This document shows, in pieces, positions 3,541 through 60,130 of a DNA stretch of 64,000 bases. The stretch covers positions 7,440,001 to 7,504,000 of the forward strand of contig OX597828.1 of assembly GCA_951406725.2 (NCBI GenBank), in the 5' to 3' direction. The DNA is from Octopus vulgaris. Lineage: Eukaryota. The notes under the pieces were generated by a model. That model ran no database searches and had not been told where the DNA came from. It saw only the letters and a program-made list of their open reading frames with translations. A program made the position numbers and the translations under genes. Numbering within the stretch: position 1 is the first letter of the stretch; each line of letters opens with the position of its first letter.

Positions 3541-3737
3541 ATTCGCCATGATAGACGCCATGATAGATCGCTAGCTACTACGCTTTGTTTTCTCTTCTTG
3601 TTTCTTTCTGTGTTCCTTTCTGTGGAAGAGCGTAGGCTCTAAACGTGAAAGACTTTCATTTCCCGAGCGTTAAACTAATACATCTGTTTGTTGTATACGC
3701 CACCTGTCTTCGTTTTTGTATTTTTGTGAACTCTGCC

Positions 3738-3738
<1 letters not shown>
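3541..3738 (+). mobile_element. minimal-hammerhead element family A (probable Penelope-like pLTR remnant)
   Basis: CTGTGGAAGAGCGTAGGCTCTAAACGTG plus the shared 3' body ending at (TA)n. Five copies in the window. Confidence 0.65.
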
Positions 3739-3765
<27 letters not shown>

Positions 3766-6081: not shown

Positions 6082-6380
6082 ACAAGCGCACAAACATACC
6101 CACACACACACATATGTATATAAAATATATATGTATGTACATAAAACATTCCAGGTAGATGTATGCACACACAAACGTACGATGAGCTTCTCTCATTTTC
6201 CATCTACTACTAGACCCCAGAACTGTTGTAGAAGCTACGTAGAGGGACTGAACCTCTGTGTGTGTGTGTGTGTGTGTGTATGTATATTTATATATGTATA
6301 TATGTATATATATATATATATATACACATATGTATATAGATATTTATATATATATACACATATATGTATATATATATATG

Positions 6381-6427
<47 letters not shown>

Positions 6428-7564
6428 GTATGTATATATATGTATATATATATATATGTATATATATATATACATATATATACATACATATGTATATATA
6501 TATATATGTACATACACACACATATATATATATAGATAGACAGATAGATAGATATATAATTATATATATATATACATTAGTGAAAAAGTAAAGGGTTACC
6601 CCAAAACGATTACCAATTTGCTCTCAGCTCTTATATTTTATAATATTAAATATATATATAATACACAAACACACATATATTTAAATATATATACATATGT
6701 TCTTTTTTCATTTGTTCAAGTCATTGCACTGTGACCATGCTGGAGCACCGCCTTTAGTCGAGCAAATTGAGCCCAAGACTTATTCTTTGTAAGCCTAGTA
6801 CTTATTCTGTCGGTCCCTTTTGCCGAACCGCTACTTTACGGGAACGTAAACACACAAGCGATGTTGGGGGGACAAACTCAGACACACAAACATATACACA
6901 CACATATATATATAAACATATATACGAGCTTCTTTCAGTTTCCGTCTACCAAATCCAAAGCTTTGGTCGACCCAAGGCTATAGTAAAAGACACTTCACCA
7001 AGACTGAACGCGGAACAACGTGGTTGGTAAACAAGCTACTTATCACACAGCCACTCCTTCAACAAAATGTAAAATATTTTATGGAATTATATCGATATCT
7101 ATCTATGTATCTATCTGTCTTTTACCTACTTCAGTTATTGGGCTGCGCCCTCCCTCAGGTGCCGCGTTGCAGGGTCTTAATCGAACCAATCGACAAAAGT
7201 TTTTTTTTTAAAATTTTTAAATTGCGCCTCCACTTGTGTATATATATATATATATATATATATAAACACAAGCGCACAAACATACCCACACACACACATA
7301 TGTATATAAAATATATATGTATGTACATAAAACATTCCAGGTAGATGTATGCACACACAAACGTACGATGAGCTTCTCTCATTTTCCATCTACTACTAGA
7401 CCCCAGAACTGTTGTAGAAGCTACGTAGAGGGACTGAACCTCTGTGTGTGTGTGTGTGTGTGTATGTATATTTATATATGTATATATGTATATATATATA
7501 TATATATACACATATGTATATAGATATTTATATATATATACACATATATGTATATATATATATG

Positions 7565-7609
<45 letters not shown>

Positions 7610-8406
7610 GTATGTATATATATGTATATATATATATATGTATATATATATATACATATATATACATACATATGTATATATATATATATGTACATACACA
7701 CACATATATATATATAGATAGACAGATAGATAGATATATAATTATATATATATATACATTAGTAAAAAAGTAAAGGGTTACCCCAAAACGATTACCAATT
7801 TGCTCTCAGCTCTTATATTTTATAATATTAAATATATATATAATACACAAACACACATATATTTAAATATATATACATATGTTCTTTTTTCATTTGTTCA
7901 AGTCATTGCACTGTGACCATGCTGGAGCACCGCCTTTAGTCGAGCAAATTGAGCCCAAGACTTATTCTTTGTAAGCCTAGTACTTATTCTGTCGGTCCCT
8001 TTTGCCGAACCGCTACTTTACGGGAACGTAAACACACAAGCGATGTTGGGGGGACAAACTCAGACACACAAACATATACACACACATATATATATAAACA
8101 TATATACGAGCTTCTTTCAGTTTCCGTCTACCAAATCCAAAGCTTTGGTCGACCCAAGGCTATAGTAAAAGACACTTCACCAAGACTGAACGCGGAACAA
8201 CGTGGTTGGTAAACAAGCTACTTATCACACAGCCACTCCTTCAACAAAATGTAAAATATTTTATGGAATTATATCGATATCTATCTATGTATCTATCTGT
8301 CTTTTACCTACTTCAGTTATTGGGCTGCGCCCTCCCTCGGGTGCCGCGTTGCAGGGTCTTAATCGAACCAATCGACAAAAGTTTTTTTTTTTTTTAATTT
8401 TTTAAA
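6033..8406. repeat. near-identical ~1.19-kb tandem duplication (6033-7220 and 7221-~8406)
   Basis: Identical unique segments 1182-1188 bp apart. Visible differences are microsatellite and poly-T lengths and about two substitutions. Confidence 0.92.
6700..7057 (-). mobile_element. CORE-like SINE, duplicated at 7882-8239
   Basis: Family motifs on the minus strand. Confidence 0.8.
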
Positions 8407-17224: not shown

Positions 17225-17492
<268 letters not shown>

Positions 17493-18905: not shown

Positions 18906-20411
18906 GGAGAGAGAGAGAGAGAGAGAGACAGGTAGATAAATAGATAGATATACGTACATAAATACATACATACATACATACATGCATACATATACGCACA
19001 TTCACACACAACACACACGCACAAATAATTGGGAAATATATATATGTATACATACGGTAAGGCACTGAATCACAACCATTCTTCATCTCCCTTCACGTCA
19101 GAGACATATATGTCGAACTTAAGTACACATACATTCATATATGTAGATACATGCGCATATATATGTATATAGCATTACAAATAGCCGGTGGTTTTGTCAA
19201 AAGTGTAACCCGAGGACCTTGGTTCATGTGACTGATCTCTTCTCCTTGTTGCAAAGGAAATAGAAAAATAACAAACCTACAAAATCATTCATTAGTTTTG
19301 ATTAGGAACAAGGCCAAGTTTTCGTAGAGGAGAGGTCTGGTCGATAAAATCGACCCCATATATTTGTCTAATTTTTATTTTATCGATCTCGGGTGGATGA
19401 AAAGGAAAAATAAAAATTGACTCCTCGGAGATTTGAACTTAAATTTGAAAAGTACGAAACATAATATTGATTTTTATTAAAATTTGGCAGAATTTCATTT
19501 TAAAAAAAAACGACGCATTTACGAGAGAGTTGTAACGCATTGAATTTGCCTGGGTACATTAGTGGTACAGATTGCATGACCTTCGGTTAGATGAAAGCTT
19601 AGTAATCCCTAAAGAGATTTGAACTTACCGTTTAAAGGGCAGAAATATAAGCTAGGTGAGTTAGTCAGTGCACAGCAGTATCGTTTTTATCAACCGCCCT
19701 AATTCTGTCGGAGAATTCTTGAATGAGTGCGATAGATCAATTGCTTTGTATTGATAAAGTTGACCAATATCCAGTGTGCTCGCATTCGAGATTTAGTCTT
19801 ACTTTGCCTTGGGTCCTCAGCTTAAAATGGAATCTTAGAAATGCAAGTCGCGTCTCTGGACATCTAAATCTGCCGATATTCATTCTTCCTCATGTCGAAT
19901 CCCGGTCAGCTTCTAACAAAAAGAAAACGAGAGAGTGGGAATAGAAAATGTAATAGGAATTAACTCTGGTTCTGGATTGTTATTTTAATAAACCGATCAT
20001 AAAAAGATAAAGAAAAACAAGTGGTGGGTGACCGGTGGATTTTGGACTCATTTTGGATAGGTCCAGAACGAATAAACAAATATAGGTTATTCGATGCTTC
20101 AGTGACTTGGCTACTTCACTATAATCTAGCCCGTTTTATAAACATAAGTCAAACTGATTTATTAGTTGGAAGATGCGTGATTCGAACGTGGAATCAAGAC
20201 GCACGAAGCTAAAGATAATAAAACAATACAAAATAATCGCTAAAATCCAAGGTGGCTTACAGCTATGAGTAGTTTAGTGACATCTGTTGCAGTGTACTCT
20301 GAGACATAATTTTATCATTAAACTGCTCCGAGTATTTGTATCCCTTGATGATTACATATATACAAGCAGACACACATATAATATATACACACACACTTAC
20401 AAATATCCTTT

Positions 20412-20566
20412 ATTTTCTCTCCTTGTTTTTCTGTATACCTTTCTGTAGAAGAGGGTAGGCTCGAAATGTAAAATACTTTTTCTATTCCTGAGCGTTATAC
20501 TAATACATCTGTTTATTTTGTACACCACCTGTCTTCGTCTTTTGTTTATTTTCGTAAACTTTCCCT
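20412..20566 (+). mobile_element. minimal-hammerhead element family A
   Basis: CTGTAGAAGAGGGTAGGCTCGAAATGTA; ends at (TA)n. Confidence 0.65.
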
Positions 20567-20567
20567 T

Positions 20568-20610
<43 letters not shown>

Positions 20611-20910
20611 TTGCGTGTGTATGTGTGTGTATGAGTGTAGACAAACAGATATTCCCATGCTGTCTCTCACACAGAGGTGTATGAATATATACCTACTTAA
20701 GTTCAAGTACATTCACACACACACATACATTTATTTATAAGTGGCAGAAGCAGAATTAATACCGGAAGATAACATTTATCCTCACTTAAACGTGAATGTT
20801 CTGTTACAACAAACTTTACTACGGTAGATACCATAAGCTTTTCCTTCATAATGCATTCTTGTTTATATCGCTTGTGGGGAGATAAATCCCCGCCATTTCC
20901 GGCGCCGAGA

Positions 20911-20957
20911 CCATCAGATCAGGTGATTTCGACCTTCCTGGGTCTCATCAATGATGG
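20911..20957 (-). ncRNA. type I hammerhead ribozyme (U3-G8 core)
   Basis: CCAUCA UUGAUGA GACC-caggaa-GGUC GAA AUCA-cc-UGAU C UGAUGG. Confidence 0.75.
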
Positions 20958-21257
20958 ATGCTCGGCCATTAGTGGAAGCACCGATCCATCTCCCCGCCAG
21001 TGATATATTGGAAAACGGTGCCAGAACGGGTACTGGTGTCGCTATTGACCAGTGAGCCTGTTAGAAATATATATATTAGCGACAGAAGCCATATTAATAC
21101 CGAAAGGTCATATTTATGCCCATTTAAACGTGGATGTTCATTTAGAACAGACTATACTGCGGTAGTTATGAGAAAAAACTCTTATATTGGCTTGTGGTTC
21201 ATAATAGACTTATATCGCTGGCAGGGAGATAAATCCGTGCCATCTTCAGTACAGAAA

Positions 21258-21304
21258 CCATCAGATCACGTGATTTCGACCTTCCTTGGTCTTGTCAATG
21301 ATGG
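21258..21304 (-). ncRNA. type I hammerhead ribozyme (U3-A8 compensatory core)
   Basis: CCAUCA UUGACAA GACC-aaggaa-GGUC GAA AUCACGUGAU C UGAUGG; palindromic stem III. Confidence 0.78.
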
Positions 21305-21399
21305 ACGCTCGATCGCAAGAGACAGCAGCGATTCATCTCCCCACCACCGATATACAAAAGAAACATTGCCAGAACAGGAGAATGAAAGATATATATATA

Positions 21400-21722
21400 T
21401 TCTTTTATTCTTTCACTTGGTTCAGTCATTTGACTGTGGCCATGCTGGAGCACTAACTTTAGTCGAACAAATCGACCCCAGGAATCATTCTTTGTTATCC
21501 TAGTACTTATTCTATCGGTCCCTTTTTGCCGAACCGCTATGTGACGAGGGACATAAACACACCAGCATCGGTTGTCAAGCGATGGAAGGGGGACAAACAA
21601 AGACAAAAATAGCATACATATATACATATATATATACGACGGGTTTCTTTCAGTTTCCGTCTACCAAATCCACTCACAAGGCTTTGGTCGGCCCGAGGGT
21701 ATAGTAGAAGACACGTACCACG
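21400..21722 (-). mobile_element. CORE-like SINE, 5' truncated
   Basis: Family motifs; adjoins and probably truncates the retrozyme repeat. Confidence 0.8.
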
Positions 21723-29451: not shown

Positions 29452-30044
29452 AAGGCGGTGAGCTGGCAGACACATTAGCACGCCGGGCGAAATGCTTAAC
29501 GGTATTTCGTCTGCGTTACGTTGTGAGTTCAAATTCCGCCGAGGTCGACTTTGCCTTTCATACTTTCGGGGTCGATAAATTAAGTACCACTTACGCTCTG
29601 GGGTCGATGTAATCGACTTAATACCTATGTCTGTCCTTGTTTGTCCCCTCTGTGTTTAGCCCCTTGTGGGTAATAAAGAAATAGGTATTTCGTCTGCCGT
29701 TACGTTCTGAGTTCAAATTCCGCCTTTCATCCTTTCGGGGTCGATAAAATTAAGTACCAGTTACGCACTGGGGTCGATATAATCGACTTAATCCGTTTGT
29801 CTGTCCTTGTTTGTCCCCTCTGTGTTTAGCCCCCTGGGGGTAGTAAAGAAATAGGTATATCGTCTGCCGCTACGTTCTGAGTTCAAATTCTGCTGAGGTC
29901 GACTTTGCCTTTCATCCTTTCGGGGTAGATAAATTAAGTACCAGTTACGCACTGGGGTCGATATAATCGGCTTAATCCGTTTGTCTGTCCTTGTTTGTCC
30001 TCTCTGTGTGTAGCCCCTTGTGGGCAGTAAAGAAATAGGTATTT
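29452..30044 (+). mobile_element. Meta-domain-like SINE with three tandem body+tail units and a 12-bp target-site duplication
   Basis: One head; units start at GGTAT at 29501, 29684 and 29854. GGTATTTGCAAG at 29443-29454 and 30038-30049. Confidence 0.88.
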
Positions 30045-58232: not shown

Positions 58233-58397
58233 CTCTCCTTTTTCTCTCTCCTTGTTTTTTTCTGTGTATCTTTCTGTCGAAGAGCGTAGGCTCGAAACGT
58301 AAAAGACTTTTTCTATTCCTGAGCGCTATACTAATACATTTGTTTGTTTGTACTCCACCTGCCTTCGGTTTTTGTTTATTTTCGTATAAATTTCCCT
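58233..58397 (+). mobile_element. minimal-hammerhead element family A
   Basis: UCUUU CUGUCGA A GAGC-guag-GCUC GAAACGUA AAAGA. Confidence 0.68.
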
Positions 58398-59093
58398 TTA
58401 TATATATACACATACATATATGTACATAAACAACTTATAAACAAGGAGAGAAGAAAAAATTCCAATGCCAAATATGCCGAAATATTGACTTAATCGTCAA
58501 TAACCATATAATTTATCACTATAAGCATGCGTCTCGAAAGTAAGCCTATAGAAATTTCTAAAAAATTCGTTATTATCGGATTGGTCCCAATTTCTGAGTT
58601 AATTCATTTAGAATTTTCTCGTCATCGGCGATAAATACGATAAACCTTTAAAGATATTTTTTTAATATGTTGGCCATTGATAAAAATCTTTTCGAAGATT
58701 TTTTATCCTATATTAGATATAAATTTAATACTATTCATATATGTACATATATATAATAAGGGTAACGTAAGATCCAAGGATCTAAGTGTAGGAGGTTTGT
58801 AAGCATCAAAGCTGTCTATGGCAGGTATAGAACCAAAAAGTGGACCATGCTCGTTCAGGAACAATAACAATTTATTGGCGTCGAAGGTTAATTACTTTTT
58901 CCCATAATAAACTTATGGGAAAATTCAGTTAGCTGAAAATTTCTGGATAGCGCAGTTAGCAACTTGAGATGCTATGAATACAAATAAAAGTCGCTTGCTA
59001 GGAAGCTTATGTAGTTTGTATTTTACTTGTTATACTCCCTCAACTTGGATCCATCCATCCCACCATCAGTCCCTCCCTCACTCCCGCCATACA

Positions 59094-59177
<84 letters not shown>

Positions 59178-59180
<3 letters not shown>

Positions 59181-59377
59181 AGAGTTTACGAAAAAACAAA
59201 AGACGAAGACAGGTGGTATACAAAACAAACAGATGTATTAGTATAACGCTCAGGAATAGAAAAAGTCTTTTACGTTTCGAGCCTACGCTCTTCTGCAGAA
59301 AGGGATGCTAGAAAATACAAGGAGAAAAACAAGGAGAGAAAAAAATGTGTGTAGTGGCTAACGATCTATCCTGGTGA
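59178..59377 (-). mobile_element. minimal-hammerhead element family A
   Basis: Minus strand CTTTCTGCAGAAGAGCGTAGGCTCGAAACGTAAAAG; ends at (TA)n. Confidence 0.68.
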
Positions 59378-59536
59378 CATATATATTTATATACATACAT
59401 ACATATACACACAAATATGTAAACTGCTGTTTATATTAATTTTATATATACACAGTAGCGAATCTCTAAATCATTCAATTATTTGAATGATGAAAACATA
59501 TATACTAATGGCGAAGCGAGTCCGAAAATTGCCGAA

Positions 59537-59607
59537 GTCGAATTGTCTTAACTGTTGAGGCAACAGAAATTGCCGCAACTACCGCGTCAATATTAAAAAT
59601 TCTCGAT
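59537..59607 (+). ncRNA. degenerate type I hammerhead (unit 1)
   Basis: CUGUUGA, stem II GGCAA/UUGCC, GCAA instead of GAAA, AUA at the site. Confidence 0.6.
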
Positions 59608-59890
59608 CGACTCTTCAGAAGATTGCAGTCCCCGTTAGTGTATGTGTTTCCATTCATGTGCGTTAACTACAGCGTTTGCGCTGTTTAGTTCTTATTTCTA
59701 GCATTGCGGGTGTTGTCTATCACCCTAGTCGCATTTAGTTACATTTGTAATTCTCCTTTTTGGCAAAACATTGCAAACAGCTGTTTATATCCATTTTATA
59801 TATACACATTAGCGAATTTCTAAATCATCCAATTATTTGGATGATGAAAATATAAATACAAATGGCAAAGCGAGTCCGGAAAAACCTGAA

Positions 59891-59961
59891 GTCGAGCTCT
59901 TTTAACTGATGAGGCAACCGAAATAGCCGAAACTAACGAGTCAGTATTAAGAATTCTCGAT
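59891..59961 (+). ncRNA. type I hammerhead ribozyme with canonical core (unit 2)
   Basis: Stem I UUUUAA/UUAAGA plus distal GUCGAG/CUCGAU; CUGAUGA (59906-59912); stem II GGC/GCC; GAAA; stem III ACU/AGU; GUA site at 59946. Confidence 0.82.
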
Positions 59962-60130
59962 CGGCACTTTTCGGACGATTATGGTCTCTGTTAGTGTAAA
60001 TGTGTTCATTCATGTGCGCTAACTACAGCGGTGTAGCTCTTATTTCTAGCAATGTAAGTGTTTCCTAACACCCTACTCGCATTTAATGAAATTTGTAATT
60101 CTCCTTTTTAGCGAAACATTGCAAACTGCT

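Follow-up and report, generated by a model that had tools for sequence, protein, structure and literature searches.

The locus considered here raises two questions, namely whether a diverged tandem repeat carrying two hammerhead motifs represents a retrozyme, and whether the U3-A8 pair found in one of its catalytic cores is a compensatory exchange or a product of decay. The window, i.e. the whole 64,000-nucleotide stretch of DNA that was analysed, is AT-rich (29-45% GC per 2 kb) and, like animal genomes, abounds in microsatellites as well as dispersed repeats, whose likeness suggests a cephalopod. The features of the element are collected in Table 1.

Table 1. Features of the hammerhead element and of its neighbours (window coordinates)
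Positions	Strand	Feature	Basis
20729-21378	minus	Whole element: non-coding repeat of 347 nt in about 1.9 units, head to tail	Self-blastn and family depth
20917-21263	minus	Monomer predicted from cut to cut (347 nt, 42.7% GC) with a branched fold; rod arms look like the family minority type	Fold, GC, arm depth
21258-21304	minus	Hammerhead copy 2: N3 21298, N8 21293, core UUGACAA (U3-A8), palindromic helix III, predicted cut after C21264	Descriptor scan
20911-20957	minus	Hammerhead copy 1: N3 20951, N8 20946, core UUGAUGA (U3-G8 wobble), predicted cut after C20917	Descriptor scan and Rfam HH9
21305-21354	minus	Outer 5' rod arm, upstream of copy 2, near the family majority	Pairs with 20863-20910
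20863-20910	minus	Outer 3' rod arm, located downstream of copy 1; includes the helix I extension CUCGGC; near the family majority	Pairing and loose-end majority
21210-21257	minus	Inner 3' rod arm (monomer start)	Pairs with 20958-21007, 38 of 46 columns
20958-21007	minus	Inner 5' rod arm (monomer end), GCCGAG extension and 3-nt bulge	Sequence and pairing
21401-21714		SINE-like dispersed repeat beside the upstream end, unrelated to the element	Many window copies at 69-91%; self-blastn match of the element stops before it
20406-20570	plus	165-bp repeat, dispersed, whose hammerhead motif is minimal and Penelope-type; outside the unit	One of 5 window copies

Self-blastn aligned positions 21067-21378 with 20729-21030 at 71.4% identity over 318 columns (E 1.6e-44), and the depth of family contigs covers the element from about 20745 to 21354. 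A contig of the DNA run X1 is identical to 20743-21291 over 549 bases, with 0 differences; the dimer is therefore no assembly artefact. The element is bordered by a short, microsatellite-like TG tract at one end and by the SINE-like repeat at the other. No target-site duplication was found around it, the longest word common to both flanks being a 7-nt AT repeat, and both units carry private decay. Unit length and GC content fall within the 150-450 bp and below the 45-50% GC used to delimit non-LTR retrozymes. The longest ATG frames across the element are 40 aa (minus strand) and 72 aa (plus strand), and a 176-aa stop-to-stop frame overlapping it has no Pfam match; the repeat is thus non-coding. 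No further copy was detected by self-blastn elsewhere in the 64-kb window, no TRF array appears at the locus among 150 of 197 arrays listed (the listing extends past the locus), and scans of the DNA for bacterial promoters and tRNAs returned nothing informative. By eye, the 170-bp tandem units at 29552-30044 look related to the SINE-like repeat.

A relaxed descriptor identified 6 distinct hammerhead motifs over the window. The strict helix test, defined as helices of at least 6, 4 and 4 pairs together with a 3-8 pair, was passed only by copies 1 and 2, whereas chance yields a mean of 0.01 matches per 64 kb in 100 Markov simulations. Both copies are type I hammerheads with the canonical features: a helix I of 6 bp (CCAUCA/UGAUGG), a helix II of 4 bp (GACC/GGUC) bearing a 6-nt loop, a short helix III and an NUH triplet (AUC). 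These helix sizes agree with those given for the canonical metazoan type I hammerhead in PMC4209133. Helix III is formed by AUCACGUGAU in copy 2 and by AUCACCUGAU in copy 1, the palindrome being complete only in the former. All core positions besides the 3-8 pair are canonical in both copies; positions 3 and 8 form a Watson-Crick pair (U-A) in copy 2 and a U-G wobble in copy 1. The C17 sites (21264 and 20917) lie 347 nt apart, one in each of the two units. The two units agree at 43 of 47 letters of the motif but, outside it, at only 184 of 249 ungapped columns, a difference with a Fisher p of 0.008. A first-pass annotation of the letters had described two diverged units with a motif better conserved than its flanks, intact stems I to III with an AUC site, the U3-A8 and U3-G8 cores, and the cut positions with their 347 spacing; all of these were recovered, the last as motif coordinates. 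Its further statement that the family is invisible to canonical-core searches was overstated. Both copies are missed by a strict CUGANGA pattern, but the Rfam model RF02275 (Hammerhead_HH9), which has a similarly bulged helix I and 6-nt loop II, aligns over its whole length to copy 1 (34.9 bits, E 7e-7, below the gathering score of 52), and, among the family contigs listed, one carries C at position 3. Copy 2 is not listed by the Rfam search up to E 10, and the gathering score is reached by neither copy.

Folding predictions place the active conformation above the minimum-energy fold, by 4.3-4.9 kcal/mol for each motif and 8.2 kcal/mol for both, with a probability of about 0.08 for helix I in the predicted circle. 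A dimeric swap of helix III, in which the strands of copies 1 and 2 pair at -7.1 kcal/mol with a mismatch and those of two copy-2 palindromes at -12.9, is possible according to the model and unneeded. The tight motif pattern gave 0 matches in metagenome contigs, and the motif pattern 0 in viral contigs. With the loose pattern, two metagenome contigs were matched (801-828 in both L001 and L002); they are identical over the 90 bases printed and hammerhead-like with a canonical core, and have only the 27-nt search pattern in common with the element family.

The family itself is large. At 80% likeness or more, 2,395 contigs were retrieved from DNA run X1 (organism A) and 3,047 from DNA run X12 (organism E), which supports the earlier proposal of a retrozyme-type repeat family and identifies it as high-copy. 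The deepest point within the element is the copy-2 motif. Summed at the two cores, depth amounts to about 1,300 times (X1) and 1,700 times (X12) that of one single-locus contig, a figure that stands for 'many' and not for a copy number. Half or more of the sampled words were found in 9 of the 24 listed runs, under four species labels. Family contigs also occur in X20 (66; an RNA run only by guess) and X10 (40), contig presence being no measure of expression or of circles. The contigs are short, and several of their joints step back by about one 347 period, e.g. 340 plus 8 letters; such back-joints are present in DNA runs too and are compatible with tandem or mosaic copies. C-to-T and G-to-A are the commonest changes among the copies.

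The locus is best explained as an old insertion, since diverged, from a repeat family that is non-coding, present in high copy number and likely a non-LTR retrozyme. The motif lies far beyond chance and is better kept than its flanks. In its sequence the element appears to combine the features by which a non-LTR retrozyme is recognized, cleavage and circles being predicted. The hammerheads would cleave tandem transcripts to give monomers of about 350 nt; a host ligase is predicted to close these into circles, as in published retrozymes, and the circles would likely be copied back to the genome by the reverse transcriptase of a Penelope-like element. Cleavage, circle formation and Penelope dependence are thus carried over, as predictions, from published systems. 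The model of PMC7229834 comprises cutting of tandem transcripts to monomers, closure by the host tRNA ligase and reverse transcription by an autonomous element, a role for which Penelope-like elements are the foremost candidates. A Penelope enzyme favours AT-rich targets in vitro (PMC11167929), Naiad elements often target TA microsatellites (10.1101/2021.04.23.441226) and Xenopus retrozymes have been linked to Penelope terminal repeats (10.64898/2026.07.22.740005). Further background is provided in PMC3884650, PMC7151607, PMC6155905 and PMC8782182.

Comparison with the metazoan non-LTR retrozymes (Cervera and de la Pena 2020, PMC7229834) reveals one type I hammerhead per short tandem unit in both, as well as a similar unit length (about 350-390 bp in mussels), low GC, absence of coding sequence, thousands of related pieces and a self-paired monomer. 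The present element differs by U3 in both copies and by a unit identity of only 71%, its cleavage and circles are predicted ones, and no target-site duplication was found. Non-LTR retrozymes are further characterised by the absence of an LTR, a primer binding site and a polypurine tract, and by target-site duplications that are long where they occur. The vertebrate non-LTR retrozymes (Li, Clavereau and Pollet 2026, 10.64898/2026.07.22.740005) likewise occur as dimers with a hammerhead per unit, in genomes that also hold Penelope-like elements. The screen used in that work begins from TRF arrays, whereas the present locus has neither a TRF array among those listed nor an identified parent Penelope element. 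A retrozyme family at this locus would extend a kind of element already recorded in many animals, corals, mussels and amphibians among them.

The U3-A8 pair is already on record in hammerheads. Natural U3-A8 hammerheads active in vitro were described by Perreault et al. 2011 (PMC3088659) and display the same Watson-Crick exchange as copy 2; in the part of that report considered here they are not placed in an animal tandem repeat, and copy 1 differs from them by its wobble. About 1,300 U3-A8 minimal hammerheads were found, only after a change of descriptor, in the Cercyon Penelope-like elements of Schistosoma mansoni (Cervera and de la Pena 2014, PMC4209133). The covariation and the residence in a metazoan retroelement are common to both systems, but the Cercyon motifs are minimal and mostly single, lacking helix III and having a longer helix II, whereas the present element is full-size and tandem with a long rod. 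Outside the supplement of PMC7229834 and one file of PMC4209133, the literature searched holds no report of U3-A8 in a full-size tandem retrozyme or of the family itself.

The first-pass annotation had taken U3-A8 for a compensatory trait of the family. The presence of U3 in both copies speaks for a real U3-A8 sub-lineage; that A8 is compensatory is no more than likely, positions 7-8 (UG in copy 1, CA in copy 2) being also derivable, as two decay products, from one ancestral CG. The best surviving alternative starts from this point and, while disputing the core, accepts the retrozyme call. An ordinary C3-G8 retrozyme would have decayed at this locus: C3 changed to U once, the unit was duplicated or its motifs homogenised, and C7-G8 turned into UG and CA, in which case U3-A8 is a coincidence and the ribozymes are dead or weak. 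This course of events is a real possibility, although not the one we would expect. It agrees with the letters at 7-8, with the X1 contig that has C at position 3 together with CUACCA, with an A at helix I place 1.3 that is common to both copies and kept by only 13-31% of the depth (X1, X12), and with the prevalence of C-to-T and G-to-A changes. The rate of change, however, is 0.17 per base at CpG as compared to 0.16 at GC, 0.14 at CC and 0.08 at the remaining G/C pair, and the observed/expected CpG ratio of the window is 0.92. Because CpG is not clearly hotter than GC or CC sites, the derivation from CG is weakened but not removed. CpG decay as the specific cause of A8 was rejected, as the GC and CC controls are nearly as high, which leaves only general C-to-T or G-to-A decay.

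Contig depth also weighs against such a decayed C3-G8 ancestor. It continues through positions 3 and 8 of both copies, and alternative letters at these positions, C3 included, are absent at either copy among the best 40 of 349 variant rows (largest share in any run at least 0.81), a result to be read with the caveats that contigs sort to the best-fitting copy and that one-fifth of the depth barely exceeds possible decay. If the rows rank by share, a rule that we infer, C3-G8 would not seem to be fixed in the family. Furthermore, should the monomers represent separate lineages, a single local C3-to-U event fails to explain both. A toy model gave a U3-A8 ancestor a probability of 0.18-0.95, depending on the prior. 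On balance of the sequence comparisons, A8 is likely compensatory rather than decayed, and U3 probably marks a sub-lineage in which its partner is A8, other members of the family having retained C3. The combination of C3 with A8 was inactive in a schistosome hammerhead motif (PMC8490949); A8 therefore needs U3. If C3-G8 cores as well as U3-A8 cores do occur in one high-copy family, this would constitute a natural test of the catalytic-pair swap, and strict CUGANGA screens would undercount such elements.

These considerations bear on the activity of the locus. A U3-G8 wobble is expected to be slower in cleavage; the literature searched contained no measured rate for a U3-G8 hammerhead. Since both cuts are required and copy 1 has only the wobble, release of a 347-nt monomer from this locus is doubtful. 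In view of the same wobble and of the private decay in both units, the locus itself is probably a weak source and a poor cutter. Among the Xenopus dimers predicted in 10.64898/2026.07.22.740005, cleavage in vitro is reported for only 1 of 9.

The ribozyme sits on a long rod. A GCCGAG/CUCGGC extension of helix I in copy 1 and a stem joining 20864-20888 to 20982-21006 had been pointed out earlier, and both are present; the scheme was nevertheless refined, as the most stable pairing of the arms runs between the copies (-62.0 kcal/mol, outer pair) and not within copy 1 (-45.8). On fixed diagonals, 41 of 46 columns are paired between the outer arms (21354-21308 with 20864-20909). The family majority letters at 20873, 20897, 20901, 21317 and 21347, drawn from the best 40 of 349 variant rows, repair 4 of the 5 mismatches and bring the outer rod to 45 of 46. 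Helix I varies in step: judged by eye, the loose-end majority sequence past the cut is UGGUGG for X1 and UGGUAG for X12, at agreements of only 0.56 and 0.57; on the opposite strand of the helix, CUACCA occurs in a contig of X1. The cut-to-cut monomer is predicted to be self-paired, with a fold at z = -3.49 and 0 of 100 shuffles as stable. A long predicted rod of about 45 pairs beneath the ribozyme is thereby shown, from aligned letters, to be kept at the level of the family.

Both arms have changed between the copies in 4 of the 46 rod columns. When paired from cut to cut, 3 of these 4 columns are Watson-Crick in both (U-A/C-G, C-G/G-C and C-G/U-A); the ribozyme-centred pairings give 0 of 4, and one column is accommodated by neither scheme. 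At least 3 such columns arise in 2-9% of simulations of neutral decay of an identical dimer (p about 0.02-0.09), and a permutation test on energies did not single out the cut-to-cut register (p = 0.19). In X1 and X12, the outer arms are 3.5-11.7 times deeper than the inner ones. A contig of X12 spans 20861-21139 with 20 differences in 279 bases, and the same junction therefore exists in organism E, as the orthologous locus or as a similar copy. Because the rod pairs best from cut to cut, the dimer may join unlike monomer lineages at the ribozymes. We lean slightly towards a union of two different lineages, with moderate confidence that majority-type flanks enclose a minority-type monomer and that the switch lies at or near the ribozymes. 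Each of four routes could produce such a switch: template switching, a nested insertion, the ligation of monomers that differ, or recombination at the DNA level within the best-kept part of the element. The rod covariation, in following the cut-to-cut monomer, would argue at the sequence level that selection acts on the cleaved, probably circular RNA, and joints located exactly at the cut would indicate that unlike monomers were ligated before retrotransposition. A bolder and rather unlikely proposal is that the insertion is a fossil of RNA-level recombination: the hammerheads of two monomer lineages would have cut them, ligation would have joined the cut sites head to tail, and the product would have been reverse-transcribed as a heterodimer, in a family carrying C3-G8 and U3-A8 cores with a co-varying helix I, thus recording an exchange of the catalytic pair via U3-G8 intermediates. 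Outside the two supplementary items named above (one of PMC7229834, one of PMC4209133), heterodimeric retrozyme insertions were not found reported in the literature.

A second alternative concerns the nature of the unit. It could be a terminal repeat (pLTR) that belonged to an autonomous Penelope-like element and survives here as a truncated partial tandem, and not a free retrozyme that forms its own circle. According to 10.64898/2026.07.22.740005, Xenopus retrozymes are related to pLTRs, and 24 of 57 Xenopus retrozyme families match known elements, 21 of the 22 elements being Penelope-like; the Schistosoma U3-A8 motifs of PMC4209133 also reside in Penelope elements. The microsatellite-like tract at the element end points in the same direction. 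The motif is however full-size, with a helix III and helices of 6 and 4 bp, unlike the minimal metazoan Penelope motifs of PMC4209133, which combine a long helix II and a short helix I with the absence of helix III. The rod moreover closes from cut to cut, several contig joints fit the 347 period, and a reverse transcriptase or other coding partner was not seen nearby (0 Pfam matches in 5 of the window's 27 listed frames). A pLTR origin is accordingly improbable. A dispersed hairpin (foldback or MITE-like) repeat whose loop merely resembles a hammerhead would suit the dominance of the long rod in the fold and the isolated 63-75-nt motifs, which fold no better than shuffles (z -0.48 and -1.29), but is very hard to reconcile with a core that is canonical outside the 3-8 pair in both copies, the rarity of such motifs by chance, the HH9 match of copy 1 and a motif that is the best-kept and deepest part of the element.

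The retrozyme reading also counts in its favour the dispersed 165-bp Penelope-type repeat, with its 5 window copies. These copies (3583-3742, 17245-17385, 20406-20570, 58236-58401 and 59153-59329) end at TA tracts, and their motif has a 4-bp helix II and a palindromic helix III region, core position 6 being U or C, not A, in all 5; they are likely remnants of Penelope terminal repeats. Another hammerhead dimer is present on the plus strand at 59418-60130, with units of about 354 nt that are 81.5% identical and flanked by TA tracts. Its motif at 59906 has a canonical core, that at 59553 is decayed, and the helices differ from those of the 20729-21378 element. The two repeats had been called unrelated in the first pass (the second as the repeat at 59421), and this was confirmed by the absence of a blastn match and by a local score of 19 against a shuffled mean of 19.2. 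Two of the 165-bp copies, 20406-20570 and 59153-59329, lie 159 and 89 bases from the two dimers, on the opposite strand, an arrangement attained in 0.6% of random placements; a common liking for microsatellites could explain this proximity.

Two further observations were made in the window. A near-perfect hairpin of 87 nt at 3789-3875 matches Rfam mir-3199 on both strands with 70.9 bits, below the gathering score of 100, and is probably an inverted repeat. Finally, the TRF rows and equal blastn scores suggest a near-exact duplication between about 6250-7000 and 7440-8180, at an offset of about 1,182 bases, apparently a recent duplication or an assembly artefact.
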